Positions 10,304 through 25,966 are shown, counted from the stretch's first letter. The stretch: 64,000 nt of DNA from an uncultured bacterium (GCA_963729625.1 CAVSOU010000008.1:480001-544000), one strand, 5' to 3'. A program made the numbers and translations. The notes: generated from the sequence alone by a model not told the origin.

Positions 10304-11481
10304 GCGGGCAGCCGGAAGCGTATCGCATCACCGTCATCGTGCTGGACGGCGTGGGCTGCGGCGAGGCGCCGGATGCCGCGGCCTACGGCGACGTAGGCGC
10401 GAACTCCATCGGTAATGCGGCGCGTGTTGCCGGAGGCATGCGACTGCCCAACCTCGGTCGCTTGGGCCTGGGGCATCTGACTGACATCCTCGGCGTGCCC
10501 GCCGACCCGTCGCCGGCCGGCGTGTATGGCCGGCTGCAGGAGGCCTCGGCCGGCAAAGACACGGTCACCGGTCACTGGGAATTGATGGGCGTAATCAGCG
10601 ACAAGCCGCAGCCGACGTATCTGCGCGGCTTCCCGCCGGATGTGATTGCGACGTTCGAACGCATCGCGGGCCGGGCCGCGCTGGGCAATAAGGCAGCCTC
10701 GGGCACGGAGATCATTCAGGAGCTGGGCGACGAGCATGTACGCACCGGAAAGCCCATTGTCTACACGTCTTCCGATAGCGTGTTTCAGATCGCTGCTCAC
10801 GAGGATGTCGTTCCTTTGCCGGAGCTGTATCGCATTTGCGCCGAGATGCGCGCGGCCCTTACCGGCCGCCATGCGATGGGCAGGGTGATCGCCCGGCCAT
10901 TTGTCGGCAGCAGCGGCGCCTACGCTCGAGACAACGAGGCGCGTCATGACTGGGCGCTGCGTGCGCCGCAAGACACCGCGCTTGACATCATAGTCGAGGC
11001 CGGCATGCCGGTGCGCGGCGTGGGCAAAATACAGGACATCTTCGCCGGGCGGGGTATCACCTCCAACCAGCACGCGCTGAACAATGCCGGAGCCACCGCG
11101 GAGACGCTGGCCCTGATGCGGCAACCGGAGCATGGCATGATCTTCACGAACCTGATCGAGTTCGACATGGTCTATGGCCATCGCAAGAACTCCCTGGGGT
11201 ACGCGGATGCCCTGGCCGCTTTCGACGCCGCGCTTCCCGAGATTCTGGCGCTGTTGGGACCGCGCGACGCCCTGTTCATCACGGGCGACCACGGCGTCGA
11301 TCCGACCACGCCGGGCACCGATCACACGCGCGAATTCGTGCCCCTGCTGGCCTGCGGCTACCGACTGCCGGCCGGTACGAACATCGGCACTCGCAAGACG
11401 TTCGCCGATCTGGGAGCGACGATCATCGATCTCTTCGGCCTGCCGCCGTTGCATACGGGCGCTAGCTTCGCCGCGCCGTAG
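10300..11481 (+). CDS. deoB: Phosphopentomutase
   Basis: VLDGVG, SAGKDTVTGHWE, YTSSDSVFQIAAHE, RVIARPF, GDHG.DPT, DHTRE; ATGA overlap with upstream gene. Confidence 0.95.
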   Translation: MSGQPEAYRITVIVLDGVGCGEAPDAAAYGDVGANSIGNAARVAGGMRLPNLGRLGLGHLTDILGVPADPSPAGVYGRLQEASAGKDTVTGHWELMGVISDKPQPTYLRGFPPDVIATFERIAGRAALGNKAASGTEIIQELGDEHVRTGKPIVYTSSDSVFQIAAHEDVVPLPELYRICAEMRAALTGRHAMGRVIARPFVGSSGAYARDNEARHDWALRAPQDTALDIIVEAGMPVRGVGKIQDIFAGRGITSNQHALNNAGATAETLALMRQPEHGMIFTNLIEFDMVYGHRKNSLGYADALAAFDAALPEILALLGPRDALFITGDHGVDPTTPGTDHTREFVPLLACGYRLPAGTNIGTRKTFADLGATIIDLFGLPPLHTGASFAAP

Positions 11482-11643
11482 TTGGTGCATCCGGCACGTT
11501 CGCGCCACATGCGCGACTCCGGCGTTGCTGAGAGTCAGGTAGCACCGCGACAAAACGGGCGATTCCCCCTTGCCACTCGCGCGATCCTGAGCCCGATCCT
11601 TTGCCCGTAGTCCCATTGTCATGCGCCGTGGCCTGAAGCTACA

Positions 11644-11701
11644 TACCGAGCGGCTACCGAACATCTACCGAAAGGGGTCCTGCGAGCGCCCACGGTACGA
11701 T
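11644..11701 (+). promoter_or_regulatory. Triple direct repeat TACCGA-N5 followed by -10-like TACGAT
   Basis: TACCGA at 11644, 11655, 11666 (11-bp period); TACGAT at 11696. Confidence 0.45.
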
Positions 11702-11891: not shown

Positions 11892-12545
11892 TCATGTGTT
11901 GAGCGTGACGAAATAGCGATGCGGCCAGAAGACGCCGGAAGGAAGCGACTGCACGGGAACGATGGCGCCGAAATCTGGGGAAGCCGGATCGAGATCGAGG
12001 CGTTCAATCAGCCGAACAAGGCCGGTAACAGGGAAGTCGGGCGCATGGTCGTCCAGCAGCGGAAAACTGCTCGTATCGCCGACTGCAAAGGCAGCTTCCT
12101 GCAGTTCCAGCACGCCGCTCAGCATGTCCTCCACATGCGGAGCGCGCGCTAGCCGCCACGCATCGACGCCAACCGGCGCAGTGGCCGGCGCCACGTCGAT
12201 GTGATCCCACCGCCTGACGGTCAGCACGAGGCAGATCGGCACACCGCACTCGAGCCGGATGACCGCTTGGTCTCGGCGTTCAGGGCCACTGCCGCGATGC
12301 ACACGCAACTCACCAATCGTGCCGCAAATGGCAGTGGAGAGAGCGGTAACGCGTCTTAACGCGGGAACCATTCCCGGCATGGCCAGGGCCAGGTCGGGGA
12401 GCAGTAAACGTCCACCATGCTGGGCAGGGCTGTGGTCCACGAATGCGTAGAGTTGCGCCCGCGCCGTCGCTCCGACCACCAGCGGCCAGGGACCAACTTC
12501 CTCCAGATAGCGGTCCGACAGTTCGAAGCAGACATCCACCGGCAT
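11892..12545 (-). CDS. Hypothetical protein
   Basis: About 217-codon ORF with AAGGA RBS and protein-like composition; no family recognised. Confidence 0.55.
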   Translation of the reverse strand: MPVDVCFELSDRYLEEVGPWPLVVGATARAQLYAFVDHSPAQHGGRLLLPDLALAMPGMVPALRRVTALSTAICGTIGELRVHRGSGPERRDQAVIRLECGVPICLVLTVRRWDHIDVAPATAPVGVDAWRLARAPHVEDMLSGVLELQEAAFAVGDTSSFPLLDDHAPDFPVTGLVRLIERLDLDPASPDFGAIVPVQSLPSGVFWPHRYFVTLNT

Positions 12546-12621
12546 GCACATCCTTACTGCTGCGCGGGCCGTGCATCGCGCACGGCGCAACGGTGTCAGC
12601 ATAGAGGTCGCCTCACGACGG

Positions 12622-12996
12622 CTAGTTCGAGCTGGGCTGCGTCGACGTCCCGTTTGCTTCGGGCTCGGCAGTGAGCGTGACCCCACGCTGCTTGCCGATC
12701 TTCAGCACGCTCGCGGCGCCGCCGATACTCAGGATGCTGCCCGAGCCTCCAATACTCAGGATGCTGCCGGCGCTGCCGATCGAGAGAACGCTGCCCGCGC
12801 TGCCGATACTGAGCAGGCTGCCTGCACTGGCAATACTGAGCATGCTCCCAACACTGAGAAGGCTGTCGACACTCAGGAAGCTGAGAAGGCTGCCGAAGCT
12901 GGCAATGCACAGAAGACTGCGGCGGGAGGCGATGCCGCGACGCCCGTGTCGTCGGCCCATGTCGCTCTGCGCGGTGGAAGGCTGCGCGTCGTCCAT
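12622..12996 (-). CDS. Small protein with 9-aa Ser-rich tandem repeats (SxLSIGSxG)
   Basis: AGAGGA RBS; repeat units differ by synonymous changes in this frame (AGT/TCG Ser, CTG/CTC Leu, ATC/ATT Ile). Confidence 0.7.
   Translation of the reverse strand: MDDAQPSTAQSDMGRRHGRRGIASRRSLLCIASFGSLLSFLSVDSLLSVGSMLSIASAGSLLSIGSAGSVLSIGSAGSILSIGGSGSILSIGGAASVLKIGKQRGVTLTAEPEANGTSTQPSSN
12694..12920. repeat. Degenerate 27-bp tandem repeat (coding)
   Basis: Units such as GCCGATACTCAGGATGCTGCCCGAGCC repeated about 5-8 times with divergence. Confidence 0.8.
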
Positions 12997-13132
12997 TACA
13001 GGTCCTCTCTGAACTGCTGAAGATCACAACGGTCCGGTTGAACACCAGTACCTATGAACATGACCACGTAGCCCGCGGATGATCCCGGTTCATACTCAGA
13101 GATTCAGCGACGTCGTGCGGGCGGGCGTTATC

Positions 13133-13783
13133 TCAGCCGCGGTAACGTATCTCGTAGGCGCACACATGCCCGGATGTGACCTGATGTGCCACGCGCACGA
13201 CGTCCGCTTCCGGCAAGGCCGCCTGGAGAAATCCCAGCTCGCTGGCGCACGCATAGCTATAACGATTCGCCACGCTCAGCACTGTGCAGTTGTGTTCGAT
13301 GATCATGAACACGTCGTCCGCGATTTGGCGAAATTCCGCCAAGCTGCCGTCGTCGTCGAGCTGTTGCGCAATCGCGCGTACCCGTGCGTCAAACGGCAGG
13401 CCCGCGGTACGTGCCTGGGCCTGCTGCAAGCGCCGCTGGCCTCGTCGCTCGAAGATCTTGCCCACAAGATCCGGATCCTCGTCGCCGACGTACTGGAGCA
13501 GCTCGTTGGTCAGCTCGGCGTAGGTGCGCGGAAAGAGCGCGTCACCGGCGGTCGTCAGGCTATAGAGATGCTTGGGACGCCCGGGGCCATCGCGCATCTC
13601 ACGATGGACGATCAGTCCATCGCGCTCCAGGGCCATCAGATGCTGGCGTGCGCCGCTCACGGTGATGTCCGCGGCCATGGCTATGGTCTCTGCCCGGGCT
13701 TCGCCCTGCCGTTTGAGATGGTTAAGAATAGCCCGTCGAGTTTCAGGAAGGCTTGAAAGACCAAAGCGAGCTAGCGCGTTCAT
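13133..13783 (-). CDS. SufR-like ArsR/HTH transcriptional regulator
   Basis: N-terminal wHTH (RQHL..LERDGL..GPGRP..YSLT..G..LFP..Y) and C-terminal HNC...C..E...C motif. Confidence 0.8.
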   Translation of the reverse strand: MNALARFGLSSLPETRRAILNHLKRQGEARAETIAMAADITVSGARQHLMALERDGLIVHREMRDGPGRPKHLYSLTTAGDALFPRTYAELTNELLQYVGDEDPDLVGKIFERRGQRRLQQAQARTAGLPFDARVRAIAQQLDDDGSLAEFRQIADDVFMIIEHNCTVLSVANRYSYACASELGFLQAALPEADVVRVAHQVTSGHVCAYEIRYRG

Positions 13784-14161
13784 ACGACACCCCATTTACA
13801 TCATATGGCCTTGTCGGCACGCACCGGAGCCCGCAAATGCGCCGGACCGGCCGGAGGTTCTGATTCTCCCTATTGTGCTGCTGGCAGCCTTGCGAATACA
13901 GAGTACACCATTGTTCGGCGGTTTGTTTGTAGAAATGTAGCAATATAGCCACATTGATGAGACCAAAATCGTACAACCTGGCTCATGTGCTGCTCTGCCC
14001 GGCGATCCTTGGTGCTCCCGCCAGTTTCGCGCCCACCGTTGGGACGTACACATACGGTGTTACTGGTCCGCAGGATCAACCGATCCACCCACGAAAGGCC
14101 AGCACGCGCCGTGGCCGGGTTGCGGCGCGACGAGCGGGCCACTCGGGTAGTATGGGCCGCG

Positions 14162-14992
14162 CTAAAGAGACGTGCTCAGCAGCATCGGCGCCGAAGGGGC
14201 GGTCAACGTGCGATCCATCGGCTCCAGCGTGATTTCCATCATCTTTGCATTATGTGGATCCATGCTCTTGTCCATGACAAACATGGCCAAGCCGCTCGCG
14301 TCCGGCTTCAGGGGCCCGTAGAATGTCCACAGGCCATCACGTTGAATCCAACAGGTGTAGCCCCTGTTGTCGGGCGGCTTACTCATGCCCGAAAGAATCA
14401 TCAACCCGCCACTGCCGTTCTTGGGCACGATCACTTCACCAATCATGCCCTGGCGTGTGGCGGGACCTTTCAACGGCATCGCCACGTGGGGCGAGACGAG
14501 CGCCTGTTCCAGCAAGTGTGATTGCTGGACGTTGTACCGATTCTTCATATCCGCGTACTGATGGTTCATGTTGATCCACGCGCCGGCAAAGAGTGCTGCG
14601 AGGAGCGTGGGGATAGCAACCGCCGCCGCCAGAATCCCGCGCATCATGGGCAAGCGACCAACCGTACCGCCCCGCGCAAAGCGCGATCGCGGCTCAAGCG
14701 GCCTCATGGCTGGTTCAATAGCCGGCGCCGCGCGTTCCGGTACGGCATCCCCGACAGAAGGCTGCATCTCCAGGGCAACACGGGCCAGAAACTGCGTGCG
14801 CAGGTCAGGCTTGGGCGCCACAGCAGCACAGTCCTGACCAAAGGTCGCGTGCAGACAGTCGGCCACGCTTGCTGCTTCCTGTCTGCAGCCGGCGCAGCGC
14901 GCCAAATGCGAGATGATCTCCACACGCTCAGACGGATCCAGCGCATCCATGCAATACGCGGCCAGCATTTCCACACAGTGTTTCTCGCTCAT
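14162..14992 (-). CDS. Zinc-finger anti-sigma factor (RskA-like)
   Basis: H..HLARCAGC ZAS motif, one TM helix, C-terminal ITLEP...PS.P RskA domain. Confidence 0.85.
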   Translation of the reverse strand: MSEKHCVEMLAAYCMDALDPSERVEIISHLARCAGCRQEAASVADCLHATFGQDCAAVAPKPDLRTQFLARVALEMQPSVGDAVPERAAPAIEPAMRPLEPRSRFARGGTVGRLPMMRGILAAAVAIPTLLAALFAGAWINMNHQYADMKNRYNVQQSHLLEQALVSPHVAMPLKGPATRQGMIGEVIVPKNGSGGLMILSGMSKPPDNRGYTCWIQRDGLWTFYGPLKPDASGLAMFVMDKSMDPHNAKMMEITLEPMDRTLTAPSAPMLLSTSL

Positions 14993-15570
14993 TCCGGCAC
15001 CTGGTCCAGATCGCGCAGGATCTCTCGTAGTTTCTGGGTGGCCAGTCGCATTCGCGTCTTCACGGTGCCGAGCGGGTCGCCAAGTTGCTCGGAAATCTCA
15101 GCCTGTGTCAACCCCGAATAGTACGCCAATTCCATAACACGACGTTGGGGTGGAGGCAACGCATCCAGCGCGTGGTGAATCTCAGCCCGTCGCACGCCCC
15201 TCACCACTTCCTCCTCAGGGCTGTCCGTATCCGTCGCCGCGACCTGGGCCAGTTGCTCCTCCGGATCCCCGGCTGTTCGTTGCGGCCTCACGCCACGGCG
15301 ACGCAGCTCGTCGACGGCAAGGTTCCGTGCAATGCCGAGTAACCAGCTCGATAGTCGGCCCAGTGAGGGCTGGTACGTTGCTGCCTGACGCCATGCGCGC
15401 AGAAACACCTCTTGAGCCAGTTCTTCCGTGCTCTCGCGATCGCCAAGCATACGCAGACCGAGTGAAAAGACGAGACTGCTGTAGCGATCGTAAAGCGCCG
15501 CGATTGCATGACCATCCCCGCGCCGGACTCCATCCATCAATGCCTCGTCCGGCGCCTCTTCATACTGCAC
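14989..15570 (-). CDS. ECF RNA polymerase sigma factor (SigK-like)
   Basis: LYDRYS..AQEVFLRAW..WLLGIARNLAVDELRR; YYSGLTQAEIS..PLGTVKTRMR. Confidence 0.92.
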   Translation of the reverse strand: MQYEEAPDEALMDGVRRGDGHAIAALYDRYSSLVFSLGLRMLGDRESTEELAQEVFLRAWRQAATYQPSLGRLSSWLLGIARNLAVDELRRRGVRPQRTAGDPEEQLAQVAATDTDSPEEEVVRGVRRAEIHHALDALPPPQRRVMELAYYSGLTQAEISEQLGDPLGTVKTRMRLATQKLREILRDLDQVPE

Positions 15571-15631
15571 GGATATCGACCTTACGGGCAGCGCCGGTTA
15601 GGCGGAGCCTGCCCACCCGCTACCTTAGTAC

Positions 15632-15657
15632 TACGAAAGAATGCCGATTGTGGATTC
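15632..15657 (-). promoter_or_regulatory. Putative ECF autoregulatory promoter
   Basis: GAATCC-N16-CGTA about 60 bp upstream of the ECF sigma start, resembling SigK-type ATCC/CGTA promoters. Confidence 0.5.
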
Positions 15658-15749
15658 AGCCGGACCGGTACCATAGTGGAGCTTGTACGCCGGCCTCTCC
15701 CGCTCATTATAGGCCGAAGCCGCTCAGTCGAGCGACCGCGATGTGGGTT

Positions 15750-16667
15750 ATGAATCACCCTGAATACACTGCACGCGACCCGTTAATCTGCCCATATTGC
15801 GCCGAACCGCTTGCCCGCGACGCGGGCGCTTTCCGTTGTGGACATGGCCACTCCTTCGACATTGCCCGCGACGGACACGCGCACCTGCGGAGAACTCGGA
15901 ACAGCGGGGACAGCGCGGAGATGCTGCGCGCGCGTCGAGCATTTCTCGATCGGGGCCACTATGCACCGCTGGCCACGACGGTATCGCGGGCAGTCGAGGG
16001 CTACCTCAGGAGTACGCCTGCGCCGGCAGCCGCTCCGCACCGGCACGCCGGCGGTGAATGGGAGACAGTCCATATCCTGGATTCCGGCTGTGGCGAGGGG
16101 TATTATCTGGAGCAGCTGCGGACGCATCTGGCGGATACCATGCCGGAGAAGCGATACCGCCTTTGGGGCGTCGACAGCTCGCCGGATGCAGCGCGCATGA
16201 CCGCCAGACGCTGCCGCGACGCCACCGTCGTGGTGGCAGACTGCAAAGATGCGCTTCCGTTCGCCACGGGCTCTCTCGACGTCCTTATCACCATCTTCGC
16301 GCCGCGAAATCCTGCCGAGTTCGCGCGCGTGCTCGTGCCGGGCGGCCTGCTGCTTATCGTGGTGCCCGATGACGATCACCTGGCCGAGGTGCGCGAGCGC
16401 GTACGCCTTATCGGCATCGAGGAGCAGAAGGTGCGGCACGTGCTCGGCAGTCTGACCGGCTTCTTCTCTACGCTCGAGGTGTCCGCGCTGAAGATCGCGC
16501 TCGAGCTCTCGCCAGAAGATCTGTCACACCTGGTCACGATGTCGCCCAGCCATCGTCACCAGCCCGAGCGCGGCCAGACGGCGCCGCGCCCGGAGGAGCG
16601 GTATCACGCCACCGGCTCGTTCAGGATTGTGAGCTGCCTGGCGAGCGTGGCGGTGGATTGCCGATAG
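15750..16667 (+). CDS. RlmA-like SAM-dependent rRNA methyltransferase
   Basis: CPYC..C..GHSFDIARDG zinc finger, GDS.EM..ARR.FL..GHY, LDSGCGEGYY, FAPRN..EF.RVL. Confidence 0.85.
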   Translation: MNHPEYTARDPLICPYCAEPLARDAGAFRCGHGHSFDIARDGHAHLRRTRNSGDSAEMLRARRAFLDRGHYAPLATTVSRAVEGYLRSTPAPAAAPHRHAGGEWETVHILDSGCGEGYYLEQLRTHLADTMPEKRYRLWGVDSSPDAARMTARRCRDATVVVADCKDALPFATGSLDVLITIFAPRNPAEFARVLVPGGLLLIVVPDDDHLAEVRERVRLIGIEEQKVRHVLGSLTGFFSTLEVSALKIALELSPEDLSHLVTMSPSHRHQPERGQTAPRPEERYHATGSFRIVSCLASVAVDCR

Positions 16668-17412
16668 TCACAGGAATACCTGCTTCCTGGAAGATGCCGG
16701 CGTTCGCATTGACCGCCCGCGCCTCGTCAAATGGCGGCTGGAACTCCAGGCCCAGCGGCGCATACTTCCCACCGGCAGCCCGGTTGTAGGACAAGAGATC
16801 GACGCGCTCCACGTTTGGCAGTATCCGCACGATAGCCGCGATTGCGCGCAGGTTCTCCTCCGAATCGGTCACGCCTGGCACTAACGGGACTCGGATCACG
16901 ACGGGAATTCCCAGCGTTGGCGTGAGGCGCAGGTTGCGCAGAATCCTCTCGTTGCTCACGCCCGTATAGCGGCGGTGCAACCCCGTATCGGCTAGCTTCA
17001 GGTCAAAGTAGATGAGGTTGCACCGCCGCGCCACCCGCGAGAAGCTCTGCGCCCCCGCGTATCCCGACGTGTCGAGCACGACGTGCATGCTCTGCAGCCG
17101 ATCGAGTACAGCTTCCAGAAAACGGGCCTGCGCAAGCGGTTCACCACCGGAGAACGTGACACCGCCCTCATTCCACGCCAGAATCTCGGCCTGACTATTC
17201 AGAAGCGCGGCGAGCTGCTCGTCGCTGTAGACGCGCCCGACCGTCCGCGTTCCCGTCGCCGTGCGCATCACCTGGGGCTTGTGGCTCATGCACTCGGGGT
17301 TATGGCACCACACGCACCGCAAGGGGCAGCCCTTCAGGAACACGGTGGTCCGGATACCCGGACCGTCGTGCACCGTGAACTCGCGAATGTCGGCGACCAT
17401 CCCGTGCGCCAT
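16621..17412 (-). CDS. Glycyl-radical enzyme activating protein (radical SAM)
   Basis: HDGPGIRTTVFLKGCPLRCVWCHNPE, GGVTFSGGEP; no ferredoxin insert. Confidence 0.93.
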   Translation of the reverse strand: MAHGMVADIREFTVHDGPGIRTTVFLKGCPLRCVWCHNPECMSHKPQVMRTATGTRTVGRVYSDEQLAALLNSQAEILAWNEGGVTFSGGEPLAQARFLEAVLDRLQSMHVVLDTSGYAGAQSFSRVARRCNLIYFDLKLADTGLHRRYTGVSNERILRNLRLTPTLGIPVVIRVPLVPGVTDSEENLRAIAAIVRILPNVERVDLLSYNRAAGGKYAPLGLEFQPPFDEARAVNANAGIFQEAGIPVTIGNPPPRSPGSSQS

Positions 17413-17418
17413 CAGAGA

Positions 17419-19587
17419 TCACACCTGGTACTGGTGGCGGGCGATCACGTGGTCCTGGTACTCGGGCGCCAGCTCACAGAAGTAGCCGCTCCAGCCCCAC
17501 ACCCGCACGATCAGGTTGCGGTGCCGCTCGGGATGCGCTTTGGCGTCGAGCAGCGTCTCCAGGTTGAGCGTGTTGAGCTGCAGCTGCTGGCAGCCCAACT
17601 TGGCAAACGTGCGCACCAGCATCGCGCACTTGCTGCGCGCGTCTGGGTCGCGGAACGAGAGGTCCGATAGCTCCATGGTGATCGGTCCCCCGTTCATGAT
17701 TCGCTGGTAGTCGATGCGGCTGAACGCCTGCAGCACGCTGATCGGCCCGCGCACCGTTACGTTGGGTGACGGGGCCAGGTTGGCGCTGAACAGATCGCCC
17801 GTTCTCCGCCCGTCCGCGGTGGCGCCGATCGGCGGTGTGGCATCGCCCGGCTTGCCACGCGCCAGCCACACGTAGTACATCGCCGAGCCCGTGCCGGGCC
17901 GGATCCGCCCGCCTCGCCCGTTGTCGGCAATGCCCTCGCAGGCCTCCGCCACGTACTCGAGCAGACGCACCATCAGGTCGTTCGCCCGCCCGTCGCTGCA
18001 GACCTTGGGCGCCTCCTCCACGAGCTGTGTGCGCAGGTCCTCGAATCCGGCGAAGTCCTGCTCGAGCGCCGCGAGCAGCTCGGTCGCCCCTACCGTGCCC
18101 GTGTCGAACACCACGTGCTGCACGGCGGCCAAAGCATCCGCCGCGTTGGCCGCAGCCGCCGCGTGCAGGCCGAAGTTGTTGTACTTCAAGCCGCGCGAGA
18201 GGTCCCGTCCGGTCGCCAGGCAGCCGTCCATCAAGACGGAATAGAAGGGTGCCGGCGGCAGATAGAGCCGTCGATACGCGTCGACCAGGTCATGCACCTG
18301 CGCGGCAATCTCCTCCTTCGTGCGCTCCAGGATCCACGCGAAGGTCTGTCCGCCGGCAAGCCCCTGCCGGATGGCCCGGTCGGCGGCGAGCGGCAGCGAG
18401 ACGGCGCCGATGTTCACCACCTCCATGCCCTGGCCCGGCATGATGAACTCCCAGCAGGCAGCCACCGTGTAGTCACGCGCGTCCTCCAGGTCGTAGCCGT
18501 GCTCGGCCAGGGCGGGAATCACCACTGCGTCGTTGGAGTACTGCGGAAAGCCCAAACCCTGGCGCGTCAGCTCGGTGGCCAGCACCAGCAGCTGCAGGTC
18601 GGTATCGGGCGCGATGCGCAGGTTGATCTTGGGGTCGATCATGCTCGTGTAGAGCGCCACGCGCAGCACCATGCGGGTCAGCTCGTTCACGCCCTCGCTC
18701 CCGTCGCGCCTGACCCCGCCCAACACCATGGTCTGGCCGTTGTCGCCCTGCTGCACGCCCGGGTAGAGGTCGCTGTCCTTGTTGAGCTGGATGAAGAACT
18801 CGGCGAGTAGCTCCTCCGCATCGGCGATGCTCAGCCGTCCGGTATCCAGGTCACGTGCCAGATAGGGCCACATGTACTGGTCGAAGCGGCCAAGTCCCAC
18901 GTGGTAATGGCCTTCGAGCCACACCGTGGCATGCAGAAACCGCAACGCCTGCAGCGCCTCGCGGAAGGACCGCGGCGCTCGGGCCGGCACCTGGTCCAGC
19001 ACAGCCGCCACGTCGTCGCGCCCCAGCGCGCGTGCCGCCGCCGCGTAGCGCGTCGCCAGGTCGAGCACGGCGTCGATAGTCTGCATCGCACACGTCAAGA
19101 ACTCGCGAGCCTCGGCATCCTCCGTTTGCGCGAGCGTCGCCTCCGCGCGCTGACGGCGGGCGAGCAGGCCCTCCGAGATCACAGCCGCCCAGCCGGCGCA
19201 GATGTTGCTGATCGGGCCAAGCTCGTGCAACGTGCGACCCGCGGTGAGCGCGCGCCATGCCGCGTCATCGTACACTGGCGGCAAGTGGGTCGTGGTGCGC
19301 GTGAAGACGATACGCTCGTCCGGCAGGATCACAGGCTGCTCAAGCTCGAGGACCCGGCAGAACGCAGTGGCGATGCGGCTCGGCCAGGGCAGCGCTGGGT
19401 CGAGGTCGCAGAGCAGCTCCGGCGTCTCCAGGCGTCGCCACCGCTTTTGTTCTCCAGCCCGGAGGAACGCCTTGAGGCGGTCCAGGCGCTCGGTGCGAAA
19501 ACAGACACGCATTTCCGGGAGATCAGTGCTGGACGGAGCAACGGCGGATGCCGTGCCCGCATCGTTAGTCGCGGTCGACGCCTGCAT
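17419..19587 (-). CDS. Glycyl-radical enzyme (PFL superfamily, not canonical PFL)
   Basis: GRFDQY, Cys loop VAACWE, ATADGR, QLQLN, Gly loop IVRVWGWSGYF; start 19587 or 19617. Confidence 0.9.
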   Translation of the reverse strand: MQASTATNDAGTASAVAPSSTDLPEMRVCFRTERLDRLKAFLRAGEQKRWRRLETPELLCDLDPALPWPSRIATAFCRVLELEQPVILPDERIVFTRTTTHLPPVYDDAAWRALTAGRTLHELGPISNICAGWAAVISEGLLARRQRAEATLAQTEDAEAREFLTCAMQTIDAVLDLATRYAAAARALGRDDVAAVLDQVPARAPRSFREALQALRFLHATVWLEGHYHVGLGRFDQYMWPYLARDLDTGRLSIADAEELLAEFFIQLNKDSDLYPGVQQGDNGQTMVLGGVRRDGSEGVNELTRMVLRVALYTSMIDPKINLRIAPDTDLQLLVLATELTRQGLGFPQYSNDAVVIPALAEHGYDLEDARDYTVAACWEFIMPGQGMEVVNIGAVSLPLAADRAIRQGLAGGQTFAWILERTKEEIAAQVHDLVDAYRRLYLPPAPFYSVLMDGCLATGRDLSRGLKYNNFGLHAAAAANAADALAAVQHVVFDTGTVGATELLAALEQDFAGFEDLRTQLVEEAPKVCSDGRANDLMVRLLEYVAEACEGIADNGRGGRIRPGTGSAMYYVWLARGKPGDATPPIGATADGRRTGDLFSANLAPSPNVTVRGPISVLQAFSRIDYQRIMNGGPITMELSDLSFRDPDARSKCAMLVRTFAKLGCQQLQLNTLNLETLLDAKAHPERHRNLIVRVWGWSGYFCELAPEYQDHVIARHQYQV

Positions 19588-19789
19588 GTCCCGACCAGCC
19601 TGCTGTAAGCCTTCCATCCTGCTTGCTCTCTTCTCTACTCTTACCTTACGGCAAGACCGGTGGTCATTATGGCGGCCGTGATACGTCGCTGGAGGATAAC
19701 GTAGAAGATCAGGGACGGAGCTGCAACAAGGGCCGCTGCAGCCATCAGCAGGCCGAGGGTCTGATTCGGCGCGAAGTTGAGGGAAGTAC

Positions 19790-20151
19790 TCTCGACCGGC
19801 GCCGTCGGAACGCTCCTCGCCAGTGTCGACGGCAGTTACGCCGACACCCGCAATCATGAGTTCGAATGCCTGGGGCTTGGAGGTAGAATTAGAGTAACGG
19901 ACGTGCTGCGGCAGTTCGAATGGTGCCCACGCGGCATGCGCGACGGCATCACTTGCTGGGAGCCGGGCTTCGTCGACGATCGCGAACGTGACTTCGGCGC
20001 CACGGCGGCCACCCATATCGATTGTTTCGTCAAAGCGCAGCAAGCCGGAGAACCGGTACCCGTCCCAGCCGAGGATGGGTATCAGGCGCTGAAACTCGGA
20101 CTGGCGGCGATAGAGTCGGCGGCGACCGGGCAGCGGGTACCGATTACGTGA
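19790..20151 (+). pseudogene. C-terminal remnant of Gfo/Idh/MocA oxidoreductase
   Basis: GAVGTL..S....Y....FE..G..GRI and PVPAEDGYQAL....AAIESA.TG.RV; no NAD-binding N-terminus upstream. Confidence 0.65.
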
Positions 20152-20173
20152 GATATGAGCGCAGGGAGTAACC

Positions 20174-22000
20174 ATGAGCACGCCGCGTCCGGAATATCCA
20201 CGTCCGCAGTTTGTCCGCTCCGATTGGCTGTGCCTCAACGGCGAGTGGCAGTTCGAGATCGATGCCGGCGATAGCGGGCTGGAGCGCGGCCTTCTGCATC
20301 GCGACCTGCAGGAGCGGATCGTCGTGCCGTTCTGTCCGGAGGCGCCGCTTTCAGGCATAGGAAACCCTGACTTCATGCACGCCGTGTGGTATCGCCGCAC
20401 CGTCCCGCTGCCCGCCGAATGGGCAGGCCGGCGCGTGCTGCTGCATCTGCAAGCTGTTGACTACGACGCCACGGTTTGGGTCAACGGCGTGGAAGTGGCC
20501 CGCCATCGCGGCGGCTTCACGCCCATCGCCGGCGACCTGCACGGCATCGCCGCGCCCGGAGAGACGATTACCATTGTGGCTCGCGCGCGCGACGATTACC
20601 GCGTTCCCCAGCCGCGGGGCAAGCAGGCGGAGCTGTACGACAACAATCGGTGCGATTACACCCGTACCACCGGGATCTGGCAGACTGTCTGGCTGGAGCC
20701 AGTTCCCGATTGCCACTTGCTGCGACCGCGACTAACTCCTGATGTTGCCAACAGCGTCATCCGCCTCGAGCAGCCGCTGACTGATAACCGCCATGGCTAT
20801 CGCGTGCGCGCCTCGTTGCGCGATTCCCAAGGCGTGGTCGCCACCGCCGAGTGTGCCGCCGACTTCGACCGTGCGCCGCGACTTGACCTGGCGATTCCGG
20901 CCGAGCGACGCCATCTCTGGGCGCCCGGCGATCCGCACCTGTACGACGTCGAAATCGAGCTTGTCGACGCCGAAGGTCGCACGATAGATCGCGCGGCCTC
21001 CTATACGGGCTTGCGCAGCGTGGCCATCGATGGGCCGGCGATCAAGATCAACGGGCAGACCATTTTCCAGCGGCTTGTACTCGACCAGGGATACTACCGC
21101 GACGGCATCCTCACCGCACCCAGCGATGAGGCTCTGCGCCGGGATATCGAGCTGAGCCTCGCTGCCGGCTTCAATGGGGCACGGCTCCACCAGAAAGTCT
21201 TCGAGGAGCGCTTCCTTTATCACGCCGACCGCCTGGGCTACCTGGTTTGGAGCGAATTCCCCGACTGGGGCTGCGCCGGCTTTGGACCGGCGGATAACCA
21301 TCAGCGGCCAGGCGCGACCTACGTCACGCAGTGGCTGGAGGCCATCCAACGCGACTACTCGCATCCCTGCATTGTCGGCTGGTGTCCGCTGAACGAGACC
21401 CACCAAGCGATTTCCGACCATATCACAGTGCTGGACGACGTGACCCGTGGCATGTTCCTTGCGGCAAAAGCGCTGGATACGACGCGCCCGGTGTTGGACA
21501 CATCGGGCTACGCTCACCGCGTTCCTGAGGCGGACGTCTACGACTGCCACGACTATGAACAGAATCCGGCTACGTTCAGGGAACACTACCGACGCGATAC
21601 CGCGGCCCGGGGACCGGCCTTTGTGTCCAGCGACGAGCATCTTCTCGGGTCCATCCCCTATCGGGGCCAGCCGTTCTTCGTCAGCGAGTTTGGCGGCATC
21701 TGGTGGAATTCTCAGGCCAAGCCGGACGACCATTCGTGGGGCTATGGCGAGCGCCCGACCAGTCTTGAGGCGTTTTATGAGCGCTTTGCCGGTCTGGTCG
21801 ACACGCTTCTCGACGACCCCGCCATGTTCGGCTACTGTTACACCCAGCTGACCGACGTCTTCCAAGAGCAGAACGGCATCTACACGTTCGATCGAGGTGA
21901 AAAGTTCGACATGGCGCGGATACGCCAGGTGCAGCAGCGGCGCGCCACGATTGAACGGGCAGCACCTGTAGACGACCGTCTTCGTCGGCTTGAACCGTGA
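20174..22000 (+). CDS. Glycoside hydrolase family 2 (beta-galactosidase/glucuronidase-like)
   Basis: PRPEYPRPQF, LNGEWQF, GIWQTVWLE, LDQGYY, acid/base PLNE, nucleophile SEFGG, YTQLTDV.QE.NG. Confidence 0.93.
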   Translation: MSTPRPEYPRPQFVRSDWLCLNGEWQFEIDAGDSGLERGLLHRDLQERIVVPFCPEAPLSGIGNPDFMHAVWYRRTVPLPAEWAGRRVLLHLQAVDYDATVWVNGVEVARHRGGFTPIAGDLHGIAAPGETITIVARARDDYRVPQPRGKQAELYDNNRCDYTRTTGIWQTVWLEPVPDCHLLRPRLTPDVANSVIRLEQPLTDNRHGYRVRASLRDSQGVVATAECAADFDRAPRLDLAIPAERRHLWAPGDPHLYDVEIELVDAEGRTIDRAASYTGLRSVAIDGPAIKINGQTIFQRLVLDQGYYRDGILTAPSDEALRRDIELSLAAGFNGARLHQKVFEERFLYHADRLGYLVWSEFPDWGCAGFGPADNHQRPGATYVTQWLEAIQRDYSHPCIVGWCPLNETHQAISDHITVLDDVTRGMFLAAKALDTTRPVLDTSGYAHRVPEADVYDCHDYEQNPATFREHYRRDTAARGPAFVSSDEHLLGSIPYRGQPFFVSEFGGIWWNSQAKPDDHSWGYGERPTSLEAFYERFAGLVDTLLDDPAMFGYCYTQLTDVFQEQNGIYTFDRGEKFDMARIRQVQQRRATIERAAPVDDRLRRLEP

Positions 22001-22139
22001 AGGCGTTCATCACGACGGTCTCCCATAGAGCTGTTGCTGTCTGGAACAGAACAACGCGGCGTGCGTTCGGTGCCAGCGGCGATCGGAAGTATGGGTGAGG
22101 AGAATTCTTTGAAGGTCAGCGACGACGTGGTGTTCTCTT

Positions 22140-23306
22140 CTACACGGACTGGGCCGCCGGATCGAACGGGAGGCGGACCGGCTTGCCGTTATCGAGCGAC
22201 GACTGATGAAGCGCGACGACGATCTCCTGATCCAGGCGAGCCTGCGCCGCTCCGTAACTGGGTTCGGACTTCTGTCGTACCGCCGTGATCAGGCTCATGA
22301 TGCAGCACGCAACGCCGATTTCGTCGTCATGCCATTGCGCGCCATGGGCCAGCATGGCTTCGAGCACCGGGTTGTCCCAACGCACTATTGGCGCCTCCGG
22401 GTCGCCGGTGTGCGCGACCATCGCCACCAGCGCCCCGCCGTCGATGCGTTCCCAACGGCGCTCGACGGTCAGGAACCGCGGGCCTTCGCCCCCGGCCGCC
22501 ACGAGCGAGAGCTGTTCCTGCACATCCAGTCCGACCCCGACGGTGATTCCCATGCCCTTCTCGGCCAGGAATCGACTGCTGCGCCACCAACGCAATGCCG
22601 AATCGTAGCCGACGTCGGTCCAGTGGAACAAGCCCAGCCTGCCGTCGGCGAATTCGACTATGCCATGCTCCTGCGTCTCCGTGCGCGCATCCCTGGTGTT
22701 CGCCAGCGGGCTCCAGTGCGGGGCAAGCTCGTACGACTGGACCGCGCCCGTCACCTGCACCGGCACGGCGTCGAAGCCGAGGTAGCTGCGCATCACGCTC
22801 ACGCCGTGGTAGCCATGCCCGGCGAAATCATTGAATGACGAATACACCTTGCCGAAAAGACCGGATGCGATGAGACGCAGCTTGAGTTGCTCGAGCGGTC
22901 GCCGATGGAACTGCTCAGCTACCTCGATCGTGACCGCCTGTCGAGCTGCCGCCGCGATAATGGCGTCGGCCTCGCTGAGTTTGTGCGCGATCGGAGTTTC
23001 CAGCAGCACATGCAGACCGTGTTCGACCGCCATCAATCCCACGGCGCCATTGGCGGCATAGGCGGTGGAGACAATGCCGATCTCGGGCGCGGCTTCCCGC
23101 AAGAGTTGCGCCATATCGGTGTACCAGGGAACGCCAAGGCGCTCGCCAAGGTTCCGCGCGGAGCCGGTACTGCGTCCCCAAACGCCCACGAGATCGGCCT
23201 CGGCACTCAACACGCGCAGGAGGGGGCCGTACAGATACGCGGATCGCGCTCCAGTGCCGATGATCGCGACGCGCAGCGGCCGCTTTGCCGTGGTGTCCTG
23301 GGCCAT
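22140..23306 (-). CDS. Gfo/Idh/MocA family oxidoreductase
   Basis: LRVAIIGTG, HVLLETP, GYHGVS; GGAGGGA RBS. Confidence 0.85.
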   Translation of the reverse strand: MAQDTTAKRPLRVAIIGTGARSAYLYGPLLRVLSAEADLVGVWGRSTGSARNLGERLGVPWYTDMAQLLREAAPEIGIVSTAYAANGAVGLMAVEHGLHVLLETPIAHKLSEADAIIAAAARQAVTIEVAEQFHRRPLEQLKLRLIASGLFGKVYSSFNDFAGHGYHGVSVMRSYLGFDAVPVQVTGAVQSYELAPHWSPLANTRDARTETQEHGIVEFADGRLGLFHWTDVGYDSALRWWRSSRFLAEKGMGITVGVGLDVQEQLSLVAAGGEGPRFLTVERRWERIDGGALVAMVAHTGDPEAPIVRWDNPVLEAMLAHGAQWHDDEIGVACCIMSLITAVRQKSEPSYGAAQARLDQEIVVALHQSSLDNGKPVRLPFDPAAQSV

Positions 23307-23320
23307 GTGTCCCTCCATGT

Positions 23321-23641
23321 CTACACGCCGCCGACGTACGACAACGCTGCCCTGGCGTAGTCCATCCAGGAATCCGCATGTTCAACAGGCACGACGACCC
23401 ATTCCTTCATTGCTCGCCCCATTTCACCTGGGTCGAAGAGATGAGCACCGGCTAAGGCAAGCGCCTGGGCGTGCGTTGCGCCGCTGAGCTTGAAGATCAT
23501 GGCGTCGCGGTAGAACCCGGCAAAGACTTTGCTGCCGATCTTGAGGCAGGGCATGCCGAACATCTTGCCCTGCGCGGCTTCCGTCATTGCCATGAGCGCG
23601 GAACACACCTCGTCGTAGGCGGTCTTCGCATCTTCTGGCAT
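23321..23641 (-). CDS. TfoX-N-like hypothetical protein
   Basis: GKMFGMPCLK..GR.MKEWV pattern; AGGAGG RBS. Confidence 0.7.
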   Translation of the reverse strand: MPEDAKTAYDEVCSALMAMTEAAQGKMFGMPCLKIGSKVFAGFYRDAMIFKLSGATHAQALALAGAHLFDPGEMGRAMKEWVVVPVEHADSWMDYARAALSYVGGV

Positions 23642-23896
23642 CGCACTGTTCCTCCTTGCCAATCGAGCGAGCTTCAGCGATCTTCGGAGGCCGGACTTCC
23701 CGGCGTGCCGTCTCACCCTCGATTATAGGGTCACAAGGCTGTCCCGGCGTACCATGAATTGAGGAAAGGAACACTGTGGAGCGCCGTCGCGCGCATGGTG
23801 CTGGTGATCTCGCCACGGAGCGACATAGACATTCGGGCTGAGTACCTCTCGCAAGGGTCCTATCGCTGCCGCCTCATGGCCTCACTGAACTGGCTC

Positions 23897-24568
23897 TCAA
23901 GGCAGCACCTCGAGCGTTGCAACTCTCGCGCTCGGTGAGAACAGCAACACGTTTTCGCGAATGTCCTCGAGATGCGAGGCGACCGCCACCCTGTCCACGC
24001 CGGGCGGCGCGTACACCACGTAGAGCGCGCCGGTCGTCTGAATGCCGATCTTGCTCCGCGCGTCCGGACCATGAAGCACGGCGGAGAGTATCCCTTCTCC
24101 GTCTTCGACGTACATGTCGCCCGCGGTCAAGACCTGGGTTCTGCCGCTGATCGTGACGCACTCCTCATCGCCGGCGGCCACGGTTGCGCGCAGCGGCGGT
24201 CTCAGCGTCGATCGGTCGTGGCCGGCCGTCAGAATCTGATTCTTGAGCTCGGCCATGAACATCGCCTCGACCAAGCAATTGGCGCGCGGAATGTCGCGTT
24301 CGCCGGACACGATCGATTCCAGCTGCAGCAGCACGTGATAGGTCTTGCGAAAGCGCTTGTAGTACGAGATATACGATCGAAGCGGCTCGGTTTGGAGCAG
24401 GTCCGTCCGCGCCAACCCTTTGAAGCGTTCCCGCAATCGTGTCTCGAGCGCCATCTTCTGGTCGTTCAGACGCGGATCGGCGTCGCTATTGGTCACGTTT
24501 TCCAGTGCCAGAATGCCCATAAACGCTTCGGGATAGGCTTCGCGAAATGCGGCGCTGACTTCCAACAT
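23897..24568 (-). CDS. Stand-alone B3/B4 (tRNA-editing) domain protein
   Basis: YYKRF.KTYHVLLQLESI, LVEAMFMAELKN.ILTAGHD. Confidence 0.75.
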   Translation of the reverse strand: MLEVSAAFREAYPEAFMGILALENVTNSDADPRLNDQKMALETRLRERFKGLARTDLLQTEPLRSYISYYKRFRKTYHVLLQLESIVSGERDIPRANCLVEAMFMAELKNQILTAGHDRSTLRPPLRATVAAGDEECVTISGRTQVLTAGDMYVEDGEGILSAVLHGPDARSKIGIQTTGALYVVYAPPGVDRVAVASHLEDIRENVLLFSPSARVATLEVLP

Positions 24569-24642
24569 CGTCGGTCACCAAGGCCCTTTTCTTTCTTCAC
24601 GGACTACGTCGTAGCGAGTCCAACCTGCAGAGCGAAATCCCG

Positions 24643-24939
24643 TCACTGATAGAACGGCGCGGCAGCCATTGTCACCGTTCTCACGGCTTGCATAATACCG
24701 GCAAACTGTCGCAGATCCACCGTCTGCGCCGCGTCGCTCAACACTCGGTCCGGCGCCGGATGCACCTCGATGACCAATCCTGCCGCTCCGGCGGCGATCG
24801 CCGCCGGCGACATCGGCTGGATCAGCGATCGCTTGCCTGTGGCGTGGCAGGGACCGACGATCACTGGCAGATGCGTGAGCTCGCGCAGCAGTGGCACCGC
24901 GCTGAGGTCGAGCTGATGGCGCAAGGTGGCATCAAAGCC
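24643..24939 (-). pseudogene. C-terminal remnant of DAHP synthase (class I beta)
   Basis: LDLSAVP..RELTHLPVIV, IEVHP.PD..LSD; DPSH motif reads GPCH; N-terminal two-thirds absent. Confidence 0.75.
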
Positions 24940-25557
24940 CTACTTCCAGATGGTTGCGATTGAAATTGCGAAGATACTGATCGGCCTGTAGTTCTTATCG
25001 ACCTTCACGACCGTGGCATACTGGACGGCGCCCTGCGGCTGCGGGCTGCCGATCGCCTCATTGCGATTCGTGCATCCATAGTTGATCCGCTGATTCGCGA
25101 CTTCCCCGGTTGCTCCGGTGAGAAAACCACATATCGTGCCGTCCCCGAGCTTGAACATCCAGGCTTGCGCGTTAAGCGCGGGCGCATGCGCGGGCAACGG
25201 GCCCGGCAGCACGACCACGATGCCGGTGGGGTGCGTCGGATCGGCGTCGCAGATAACCCTGCTGGCGTGCTGCGCCAGGCTGAAGCACGGGTCAAAGATC
25301 TCGTTGCCGACCATGCATCGCCAGGCATCGGAACGATCGAGTGCCAGAGATTCGCCCATGTCGCATGTTCCTTGGCGCGGCGATCCAACCGTGCCGGCGG
25401 GATGAAATACCACGACCTTGGTAGGTGGCACGGCGCCAAGCGCGCCGCCCGCGGCGTGTACCGAAGTTTCGTGGGGAGCGAAAGCAATGCCGCTGCACGC
25501 CACGAGCAGGGCAAGCAAGACAACACCGAACAGCCGCTGTCGCCGTGTTGGCGCCAT
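24940..25557 (-). CDS. Secreted Cys-containing hypothetical protein
   Basis: GAGGAG RBS, signal peptide, six Cys in the mature part (RSDAWRC...DPCF). Confidence 0.7.
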   Translation of the reverse strand: MAPTRRQRLFGVVLLALLVACSGIAFAPHETSVHAAGGALGAVPPTKVVVFHPAGTVGSPRQGTCDMGESLALDRSDAWRCMVGNEIFDPCFSLAQHASRVICDADPTHPTGIVVVLPGPLPAHAPALNAQAWMFKLGDGTICGFLTGATGEVANQRINYGCTNRNEAIGSPQPQGAVQYATVVKVDKNYRPISIFAISIATIWK

Positions 25558-25632
25558 GACACGTTCTCCTCTCAAAGCACTGCACGCACCATAGGAGCTC
25601 ATTGAGCCGTACCACCAGATATGCGTAGTTGC

Positions 25633-25651
25633 TATACTCCCGACAAGTATA
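25633..25651. promoter_or_regulatory. CsoR/RcnR-type operator
   Basis: TATACT-CCCGACA-AGTATA inverted repeat (TACT-N7-AGTA) 24 bp upstream of csoR. Confidence 0.7.
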
Positions 25652-25675
25652 CGGCATACAAGGGAGAATTGAGAC

Positions 25676-25966
25676 GTGCCCAAGCATGTTCCAGTTGAAT
25701 ATGCGCGCGACAAGCAGGACCTCCTGCGCCGCCTGCGCAAGGTCGAAGGCCAGGTGCGCGGCCTGCAGCAAATGATCGAGGACGACCGTTATTGCCTGGA
25801 TATCGTTCAGCAGGTCAGCGCCCTGTCTGCAGCCGCGCGCAAGGTCGCGCTGATCGTGCTTGAAGACCACCTGCGCGGCTGCCTCGTGACCGCCGTCAAG
25901 CGAGAGGGAGAGGACGCAGCGTTACAAGAGATGGTAACGGTGCTGGATAAGGCGCTACATCCCTAG
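25676..25966 (+). CDS. csoR: CsoR-family metal-sensing repressor
   Basis: RLRKVEGQVRGLQQMI..RYCLDI; HLRGC (C-H-C fingerprint). Confidence 0.88.
   Translation: MPKHVPVEYARDKQDLLRRLRKVEGQVRGLQQMIEDDRYCLDIVQQVSALSAAARKVALIVLEDHLRGCLVTAVKREGEDAALQEMVTVLDKALHP

Follow-up and report, generated by a model that had tools for sequence, protein, structure and literature searches.

What does a glycyl radical enzyme (GRE) do that has a tryptophan beside both of its predicted radical residues and an activase without a ferredoxin insert? The question is raised by a two-gene cassette at positions 16621-19617 of a 64,000-nucleotide (nt) stretch of DNA from an uncultured bacterium (GCA_963729625.1, CAVSOU010000008.1:480001-544000). 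The whole stretch is termed the window here, and all positions are counted from its first letter. The pair had been noticed in an earlier note made from the window sequence, in which eliminase or dehydratase chemistry on an uncharacterised substrate was proposed. In the present analysis the enzyme was found to belong to a large family. In its best interpretation, which we hold with slightly more confidence than doubt, the enzyme is a radical C-O lyase or isomerase of the CXE type whose substrate is a neutral sugar, or a derivative of one, that is imported and belongs to the L-arabinose/D-galactose world.

The enzyme and its activase

The minus-strand reading frame runs without a stop from position 20400 to 17419. 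Within it, the GRE gene was placed at 17419..19617 on the basis of the Pfam matches and the coverage by homologues, resulting in a protein of 732 amino acids (aa). The 732-aa form starts at the ATG at 19617; from an inner ATG at 19512 the protein would have 697 aa, which is the length of most family members. The nearest homologues (73-78% identity, 730-735 aa) span 98-100% of the 732-aa form, and an identical sequence is already on record as a 732-aa protein. The PFL-like domain PF02901 was matched with 286.9 bits (cut-off 24.3; E-value 4.9e-85) over profile positions 153-645 of 647, and the C-terminal Gly_radical domain PF01228 with 57.6 bits (cut-off 22.2; 2.1e-15). At these E-values a chance match is out of the question.

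The core of the Cys loop, C388-W389-E390 (18448..18456, minus strand), was determined by alignment with glycerol dehydratase (PDB 1r8w) and was present in 15 of 15 aligned family members. In the HMMER alignments Cys388, Trp389 and Glu390 correspond to Cys433-Val434-Glu435 of glycerol dehydratase. The codon of Cys388 is at 18454-18456, in the context TVAACWEF. The predicted radical-bearing residue, Gly708 (codon 17494-17496, minus strand; context IVRVWGWSGYF), aligned with the RVAGYS loop of 1r8w.

The cognate activase (16621..17412, minus strand; 263 aa) begins 6 nt beyond the GRE stop, downstream on the same strand. It consists of a radical SAM domain only: Radical_SAM and Fer4_12 were matched by Pfam, and no Fer4 ferredoxin domain was found in it. 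With 207.1 bits it passed the cut-off (174.35) of the NCBIfam glycyl-radical activase subfamily TIGR02494, in two stretches which omit profile positions of about 46-97, the part of the ferredoxin insert. The cluster-binding motif C29-x3-C33-x2-C36 (17305..17328, minus strand) was read from the translation, and the protein has five cysteines in total. The activases of the family are uniformly short (226-278 aa after trimming, 3-8 cysteines), with the CX3CX2C motif in 66 of 69. The activase of the second GRE of the same genome does have Fer4 domains.

According to the available part of a June 2026 review (PMC13450708), the cysteine ligands of the E. coli pyruvate formate-lyase activating enzyme (PFL-AE) carry the same numbering, 29/33/36, and a ferredoxin-like domain is usual in GRE activases other than PFL-AE and the activating enzyme of ribonucleotide reductase (RNR-AE). 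A CXE-type GRE with a minimal, ferredoxin-less activase departs from this pattern. Activation is named in the same text as the bottleneck of the GRE field, and the minimal activase could prove easier to reconstitute.

The window thus encodes a PFL-like barrel with a C-terminal glycine domain, the RVxG glycine, the Cys-loop cysteine and an adjacent CX3CX2C activase. As read from the sequence, the pair is real and intact and belongs to the PFL-like GRE superfamily. The earlier note had proposed such a pair with a short activase lacking the ferredoxin insert, and both proposals were confirmed; the cysteine and glycine codons it had named were exact.

Family extent and conservation

In a word-indexed protein search, 120 clusters were obtained among the matches listed, with 62-100% identity and lengths of 646-735 aa. 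A pattern scan with one genome per species resulted in 494 stretches encoding a relative. The best 80 of these (48-71% identical) all come from metagenome-assembled genomes, labelled Chloroflexota (36), Planctomycetota (14), Verrucomicrobiota (11), Acidobacteriota (7), Spirochaetota (4), Lentisphaerota (2) and Hydrogenedentota (1), with three unlabelled; two further loci of the 80 are labelled Bifidobacteriaceae and group with Verrucomicrobiota. The relatives' genomes were assembled from peat, soil, groundwater, sediment and digesters, where the family is common. An identity of 57-78% is kept across Chloroflexota, Acidobacteriota, Planctomycetota, Verrucomicrobiota and Spirochaetota, and this conservation across phyla implies selection for function.

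Conservation was determined in an alignment of 15 members (63-78% identical). The sequences VAACWEF and IVRVWGWSGYFCEL were invariant, as were R705-V706-W707-G708-W709 and polar residues of the barrel, e.g. in VQQGDNGQ, GFPQYSND and GATADGR. When representatives of clusters at 50% identity were compared, AACWE and RVWG[WF] were also retained by a wider clade of short GREs (lengths of about 650-745 aa, identities of 30-49%); the canonical representatives of 770-800 aa have GCVE-like and RV[AST]GY motifs instead. The tryptophans at both radical residues, to which the earlier note had drawn attention in this one gene, are therefore a signature of the clade.

None of the NCBIfam equivalogs reached its cut-off. 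The comparison covered HypD, CutC, HpfG/HpsG, the indoleacetate and 4-hydroxyphenylacetate decarboxylases and the PflD type. The highest score was obtained with NF007437 (PflD-type; 236.9 vs 1109 bits), and the remaining equivalogs scored 139-220 bits against cut-offs of 1000-1150. The PFL2/glycerol dehydratase subfamily TIGR01774 gave 277 bits, below its cut-off of 678.2. No paper on this GRE family was found in literature searches, and an ESM Atlas search returned generic GRE clusters only. The available text of the review (PMC13450708) mentions whole GRE clades without experimental validation. The earlier suggestion of an uncharacterised substrate was supported by these comparisons; clustering with a characterised GRE at high identity was looked for, and none was close. 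Judged by sequence, the family is large and widespread; it is an uncharacterised clade that goes under the wrong label and is set apart by its motifs and a minimal activase.

Two clade members, P0173 and P0219, lack the catalytic cysteine and the radical glycine (AAGSCF.../VCVRDW and SSRGE/RLWSSG) and may be pseudo-enzymes or broken genes. Outside the family, short GREs of 733 and 727 aa, about 25% identical to it, were observed in L086 (G009:C3:241000-260900) and L087 (G011:C12:1069500-1089400). Their Gly loops are RVTGF and RVTGY, respectively, and each has an adjoining activase. Both are sugar loci with genes for Gfo/Idh/MocA proteins, a xylose-isomerase-like TIM barrel, CUT1 ATP-binding cassette (ABC) components and LacI, so that further uncharacterised GRE families of sugar loci exist.

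Gene neighbourhoods of the relatives

The neighbourhood sample consisted of the best 80 of the 494 stretches and the window, i.e. 81 loci. Our own open reading frame (ORF) calls were clustered by all-against-all BLASTP, and the representatives were named by Pfam, NCBIfam and PDB searches. Cluster 7 was first labelled glycoside hydrolase (GH) family 127; Pfam analysis of 36 of its 39 members resulted in a mixture of GH127, GH51-like arabinofuranosidases, aldose 1-epimerase and lectin-domain proteins, and the counts were corrected.

An activase gene adjoined the GRE gene on the same strand in 63 of the 81 loci, upstream in 54 and downstream, as in the window, in 9. In 12 loci none was found; the flank is short in 8 of these. 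Sugar-type transporter components were detected in 50 loci. CUT2 ATPases, permeases and binding proteins were present in 33, 30 and 24 loci, sugar porters of the major facilitator superfamily (MFS) in 8 and RhaT-like transporters in 4. As a control, the CUT2 permeases were counted in type-B genomes; there are only 2-4 per genome, and one of them adjoins the GRE in each of the three genomes checked. Regulators of the LacI or XylR type were observed in 29 loci.

Arabinofuranosidase-type glycosidases were found in 19 loci with 5-6 phylum labels (GH127 in 10, GH51-like in 16), and signal or twin-arginine translocation (TAT) peptides were present at the N-termini that were read. GH36-like glycosidases occurred in 9 loci. 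The genes of sugar catabolism comprised araA (9 loci; representative 829 bits, cut-off 622), araD-like genes (8), FGGY kinases (8) and galK (6; 372 bits, cut-off 227). The class II aldolase-fold neighbour scored as L-ribulose-5-phosphate 4-epimerase (335 bits, cut-off 251). Gfo/Idh/MocA genes were present in 13 loci, Zn-dependent alcohol dehydrogenases in 10, short-chain dehydrogenases/reductases (SDRs) in 3 and aldo-keto reductases in 2. At least one sugar gene was detected in 60-61 of the 81 loci. No aldehyde dehydrogenase and no bacterial microcompartment (BMC) shell gene was found in the Pfam scans of the neighbours, and Rfam searches of six related loci gave nothing at gathering scores.

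Genes for URO-D and/or corrinoid proteins were present in 25 loci, from Chloroflexota, Spirochaetota and one Planctomycetota locus. Their NCBIfam names were MtaA/CmuA-like and MtgC/MtbC-like, with scores below the cut-offs. We take the URO-D-type proteins to be O-demethylases, and their repeated adjacency to the GRE suggests a link to methyl-group removal.

Several gene orders recurred. In the Chloroflexota layout, genes for LacI, a binding protein, an ABC component and a permease are followed by three URO-D genes, a corrinoid protein, the activase, the GRE, araA, an M24 peptidase, an FGGY kinase and an araD-like gene. The Planctomycetota/Verrucomicrobiota layout is LacI, GH127, binding protein, ABC, activase, GRE and two GH51-like genes. 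Another layout of the Planctomycetes-Verrucomicrobia-Chlamydiae (PVC) bacteria is XylR, activase, GRE, MFS, GH36-like and GH123-like, and that of Terriglobia is GRE, activase, RhaT-like and galK. The PVC-type operons encode no cytoplasmic enzymes other than the GRE and its activase, which stand between an importer and secreted glycosidases. This context links the family to the anaerobic metabolism of arabinose, galactose and possibly methyl sugars.

GH51-like arabinofuranosidases of about 820 aa with an N-terminal 3-keto-disaccharide-hydrolase (DUF1080) domain were observed in L005, L008, L011, L014, L030, L033, L045, L055, L062, L063, L065, L068 and L073, usually directly after the GRE. Two long ORFs are possible fusions or read-through artefacts of ORF calling: L045:1248-4478 (minus strand; GH127 and aldose 1-epimerase) and L068:11973-16559 (plus strand; GH127 and DUF1080/GH51-like arabinofuranosidase).

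Proposed reaction and substrate

In the part of the review at hand (PMC13450708), the CXE motif is retained by all characterised GRE eliminases (GD, PD, HpfG, HypD, HpyG, HpzG, CutC, IslA/IseG and HpsG) and isomerases (HplG, YbiW and PflD). In the window enzyme the motif is C388-W-E390, and its invariance in the family is in agreement with the eliminase or dehydratase chemistry suggested in the earlier note. While the fold family, the motifs, the activase type, the conservation and the gene neighbourhoods can be read from the sequences, the activity, the chemistry and the substrate class are inferred from them.

The two genes would encode an active GRE, with a minimal activase dedicated to it, that works in the cytoplasm of glycan-degrading anaerobes. 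The activase, with S-adenosylmethionine and a single [4Fe-4S] cluster, would generate a radical on Gly708, and its transfer to Cys388 would yield a thiyl radical. This radical is expected to take a hydrogen from a carbinol carbon of the substrate while Glu390 deprotonates the hydroxyl. The resulting ketyl radical would eject the oxygen substituent of the neighbouring carbon, which may be a hydroxyl, an ether or a ring oxygen, and the hydrogen would be given back by Cys388. This standard GRE scheme is supported by the CXE motif, the aligned catalytic residues and the eliminase and isomerase relatives.

The substrate is probably a neutral monosaccharide-type compound or a small conjugate, taken up by the sugar importer that is encoded alongside in most relatives. 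It would arise from arabinose- or galactose-rich plant or algal glycans and, in some lineages, from their O-methylated forms; the product or the freed sugar may enter the AraA/AraB/AraD or GalK routes or be processed by neighbouring reductases. A place in the catabolism of arabinose- and galactose-rich glycans is indicated by the gene neighbourhoods.

Several observations weigh against this interpretation. Canonical araA, araB and araD are complete elsewhere in most type-B and type-C genomes. His164 of glycerol dehydratase, a proposed general acid according to the accessible text of the review (PMC13450708), aligns with the invariant Asn138 of the family, so that a proton donor for the leaving group is lacking at that position. 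The window locus has no importer, regulator or arabinofuranosidase, and its flanks are unrelated to those of the locus in the same genus. None of the counted gene kinds was present in 13 of the 81 loci, 5 of which are on very short contigs. The ORF calling was crude, and one cluster label ('GH127') was mixed before correction. Finally, the neighbourhoods are partly inherited by descent, and the locus counts therefore overstate the independent support.

The arabinose genes bear directly on the choice of substrate. Since most of those genomes have araA, araB and araD-like genes at other loci, plain L-arabinose needs no radical enzyme. A modified or conjugated sugar (O-methylated, ether-linked or a glycosyl-amino-acid), or the sugar itself via a parallel branch, is thus more likely. 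The GRE was also considered as a substitute for L-arabinose isomerase, and this was rejected: an araA that passes its cut-off is encoded at another place in 4 of 5 type-B and 2 of 5 type-C genomes. An araB above its cut-off, accompanied by an araD-like gene, was detected in 4 of 5 genomes.

In a more far-reaching version, which we regard as rather unlikely, the enzyme would be the first GRE in the catabolism of plant or algal cell-wall sugars to have an unphosphorylated sugar as its substrate, and one form of it would free L-arabinose or D-galactose from hydrolase-resistant conjugates. The candidate conjugates would be hydroxyproline-O-glycosides and ether-linked or O-methylated sugars, and in Chloroflexota and Spirochaetota the GRE would work in one operon with a corrinoid O-demethylase. 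If true, the anaerobic carbon turnover of peat, soil and sediments would gain a new reaction class, in which a sugar is the leaving group, and a new partnership of enzymes.

Alternative explanations

The enzyme might be a microcompartment-free dehydratase of a small intermediate (ethylene glycol, glycolaldehyde, 1,2-propanediol or lactaldehyde) that follows on the catabolism of pentoses or deoxyhexoses, with a pocket shrunk by the tryptophans to C2-C3 compounds. Glycerol dehydratase is one of the two top solved relatives (218.7 bits; 294.3 bits with the family profile), a tryptophan stands beside each of the radical residues, and the Zn-dependent alcohol dehydrogenases, aldo-keto reductases and SDRs of the neighbourhoods would be consistent with such a product. 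Deoxyhexoses are weakly hinted at by the RhaT-like and RhaS-like transport proteins. However, no aldehyde dehydrogenase, phosphotransacylase or shell gene was found in the neighbourhood scans, and the GRE adjoins importers and sugar-sensing regulators rather than aldehyde-handling genes. The rhamnose and fucose sets of isomerase, kinase and aldolase are not conserved partners either, the aldolase-fold neighbour being by score the ribulose-phosphate epimerase. We consider this alternative unlikely.

The gene order of the Chloroflexota loci gives rise to a second possibility, a radical lyase that frees L-arabinose or D-galactose as the leaving group from a glycosidase-resistant conjugate. The conjugate would be a hydroxyproline-O-glycoside of extensin or arabinogalactan-proteins, or an ether exposed by corrinoid-dependent O-demethylation. 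In these loci the three URO-D genes, the corrinoid protein, the activase, the GRE, araA, the M24 peptidase, the FGGY kinase and the araD-like gene are on one strand. If AraA takes the product of the GRE, arabinose is only possible as the leaving group, since by chemical reasoning the product of a 1,2-elimination carries a deoxy carbon. The prolidase-like M24 gene is present in 5 loci, and transglutaminase-like genes in 13 loci and in the congener genome G011. Beta-L-arabinofuranosides occur in extensin and arabinogalactan-proteins, as reported in the available part of PMC10850190. On the other hand, monosaccharides are the usual cargo of CUT2 binding proteins and sugar-porter MFS carriers, no proline or pyrroline-5-carboxylate (P5C) genes were found in the neighbour scans, and HypD was a weaker match than glycerol dehydratase or PflD (156.7 vs 218.7 bits). 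The order with araA, M24 and URO-D comes from one clade and may reflect a single evolutionary event, and such a lyase is, in our estimate, quite improbable.

It is very unlikely that the enzyme is a radical decarboxylase that makes, for example, a pentose from a uronic acid (L-arabinose from D-galacturonate, or xylose from glucuronate). GH4 genes are present in 2 loci, and 4-O-methyl-glucuronate is a candidate substrate for such a reaction. GRE decarboxylases are known as a class (PMC13450708, in the part available), araA directly follows the GRE in 8 loci, and the GH2 glycosidase of the window resembles an entry named beta-glucuronidase (465 bits). The importers are nevertheless of neutral-sugar types, no pectin or uronate genes (GH28, lyases, UxaC etc.) were found in the neighbour scans, and the known GRE decarboxylases were far weaker matches (HPAD 2y8n, 96.4 bits).

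That the relocated cassette of this particular genome is an inactive relic has hardly any probability: it is located beside a truncated gene, its usual partners are absent and only 2 of 31 related genomes were found to carry the GRE, but both frames are intact, all the family-invariant residues are retained, and the frames are undisrupted over the 2.8 kb of 74.5% DNA identity with the same-genus copy. The least probable of all is the pyruvate formate-lyase (PFL) activity of the source labels, 'formate C-acetyltransferase' and 'pyruvate-formate lyase', which has the names and the common fold in its favour and is dismissed because there is no Cys-Cys pair (Ala387-Cys388), the PFL profile TIGR01255 gave 45 bits vs a cut-off of 994.2 over residues 598-728 only, i.e. 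the C-terminal glycine domain, and PFL 1h16 gave 45.7 bits.

Implications

The source databases label the family proteins 'pyruvate formate-lyase' or 'formate C-acetyltransferase'. As the family is common, formate production may be wrongly inferred from these labels for Acidobacteriota, Anaerolineae and PVC bacteria. The family's conserved association with the genes of arabinofuranosidases, sugar importers and corrinoid methyltransferases is a sign that a radical step has gone unrecognised in the way plant and algal glycans rich in arabinose and galactose, and possibly methylated, are broken down by anaerobes. The family is a concrete and tractable target, and the co-encoded binding proteins offer a direct path to the substrate.

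The window locus and its host genome

The neighbours of the cassette in the window were a truncated gene, a glycosidase and an oxidoreductase. A Gfo/Idh/MocA remnant of 124 aa (19777..20151, plus strand) was placed between the GRE start and the glycosidase. Only the C-terminal half is present (PF02894, 30.8 bits, positions 93-218 of 218), and the absent N-terminal part would overlap the GRE. The remnant was 38.7% identical to residues 211-328 of the Gfo/Idh/MocA protein adjoining the GRE in L062. It looks like the mark of a rearrangement at the edge of the cassette, truncated when the cassette arrived or moved. The GH2 glycosidase (20174..22000, plus strand), assigned by its Pfam GH2 domains, is divergent from the GRE, and no signal peptide was found on it, consistent with a cytoplasmic enzyme. 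Its closest solved relatives were 7xyr, named 'beta-glucuronidase' (465 bits), and the GH2 beta-D-galactofuranosidase 9j6n (255 bits). Homologous GH2 genes were near the GRE in two other loci, L014 and L043, and GH2 is not a conserved partner. A Gfo/Idh/MocA oxidoreductase gene (22140..23318, minus strand; PF01408, 62.5 bits) follows; like the GH2 gene, it is regarded as context only.

Both of these genes had been named in the earlier note as a hint at a sugar or polyol, and both are present by Pfam. The sugar part of the hint was borne out, far more strongly by the related loci than by the window, the own neighbours of which are not conserved even within the genus; no specific support was obtained for a polyol. 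The absence of microcompartment genes, reported for the vicinity, extends to the whole genome: the BMC shell protein PF00936 had no matches in the window genome, which is 87.5% complete.

Besides the window genome, the GRE was detected in 1 of 4 others of the same genus, and in none of 16 same-class and 10 same-phylum genomes. The congener G011 shares only the two cassette genes, with the above DNA identity over window positions 16712-19500, and a LacI gene follows its cassette. In a FastTree tree the window GRE was sister to Bryobacteraceae sequences (local support 99). From the unrelated flanks, the sparse distribution and this position, the cassette looks to have been relocated or acquired as a two-gene unit.

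The window genome further contains two canonical GREs with ferredoxin-type activases, one GH127 gene and galK, and araA was not found in it. An unusually large set of 27 tblastn hits to the URO-D-type methyltransferase was observed, together with three corrinoid proteins. One canonical GRE (L081, G000:C10:1164643-1167953; 787 aa, PFL-like 745 bits over the full length) has a ferredoxin-type activase of 321 aa and, nearby, a URO-D gene, a PfkB kinase and an aldo-keto reductase. In the third GRE (L082, G000:C8:760317-762814), which is preceded by a Gfo/Idh/MocA gene and an activase, the glycine-radical domain is in a separate overlapping ORF, owing to a frameshift, an assembly error or a pseudogene.

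On the other side of the cassette, an ORF for an RlmA-like 23S rRNA methyltransferase (15150-16667, plus strand) overlaps the 3' end of the convergent activase gene by 47 nt at its own 3' end. As its Pfam match begins only at residue 213, translation probably starts further downstream. An ECF sigma factor (14989-15570) and a RskA/zf-HC2 anti-sigma factor (14162-14992) are encoded on the minus strand at 14162-15570. A phosphoglucomutase/phosphomannomutase gene and then a metalloenzyme-superfamily gene (phosphopentomutase or iPGM-like) are at 8966-11481 (plus strand); the longer antisense ORF at 9943-11664 has no family match and is probably spurious. Rfam gave no match at E <= 0.1 in the window from 12000 to 26000, and the promoter and terminator scan of 16300-20400 showed no excess over the shuffled expectation.

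Comparison with characterised glycyl radical enzymes

By single-sequence comparison with PDB entries, the solved GREs were all distant and roughly equidistant. The scores were 218.7 bits for glycerol dehydratase, 214 and 209 for PflD, 206 for CutC, 188.6 for diol dehydratase, 156.7 for HypD and 45.7 for PFL. By alignment score, glycerol dehydratase, PflD and CutC are the best solved relatives.

The similarity to PflB and PFL-AE is on the side of the activase, which likewise consists of the radical SAM domain alone with equal Cys29/33/36 spacing. In contrast, the window GRE lacks the Cys-Cys pair of PflB, and its match to PFL is confined to the glycine domain (45 bits). HypD, the trans-4-hydroxy-L-proline dehydratase, is a CXE eliminase too, and its substrate derives from plant glycoproteins that also bear beta-L-arabinofuranosides; however, the HypD scores were low (NF043068, 219.8 vs 1100 bits; 6vxc, 156.7 bits) and no P5C reductase gene is nearby here. 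The choline trimethylamine-lyase CutC, another CXE eliminase, was the top match of the family profile (9f3w, 305.2 bits). The present family differs from it in the equivalog score (TIGR04394, 216.6 vs 1050 bits) and in having no microcompartment or aldehyde-handling genes.

Glycerol dehydratase (1r8w/1r9d), a B12-independent 1,2-eliminase, is the best or second-best solved relative. The same barrel is predicted, Cys433/Glu435 fall on Cys388/Glu390 and the glycine loops are aligned. Its length of 787 aa exceeds the 697-732 aa here by about 55-90 residues, GCVE and RVAGY replace ACWE and RVWGW, and His164 is found in place of Asn138. The ferredoxin-like domain usual outside PFL-AE and RNR-AE (PMC13450708, as far as available) is lacking in the window activase. 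Asn138 for His164, the tryptophans at both radical residues and the minimal activase weigh against a simple analogy with glycerol dehydratase.

PflD and YbiW (PDB 8id0, 8yjo, 8id7) are 1,5-anhydrohexitol-6-phosphate C-O lyases, classed as GRE isomerases. They differ from the present family in the equivalog score (NF007437, above), the motifs and the activase type; moreover, most of the operons here have no sugar kinase or phosphotransferase system (PTS) gene and thus give no sign of a phosphorylated substrate. PflD and YbiW are nevertheless the sole characterised GREs with sugar-type substrates, the CXE motif is kept in them, and their scores are at about the level of glycerol dehydratase. By analogy, the cleavage of a ring or ether C-O bond, as carried out by PflD and YbiW, is a plausible model for the reaction of this family.

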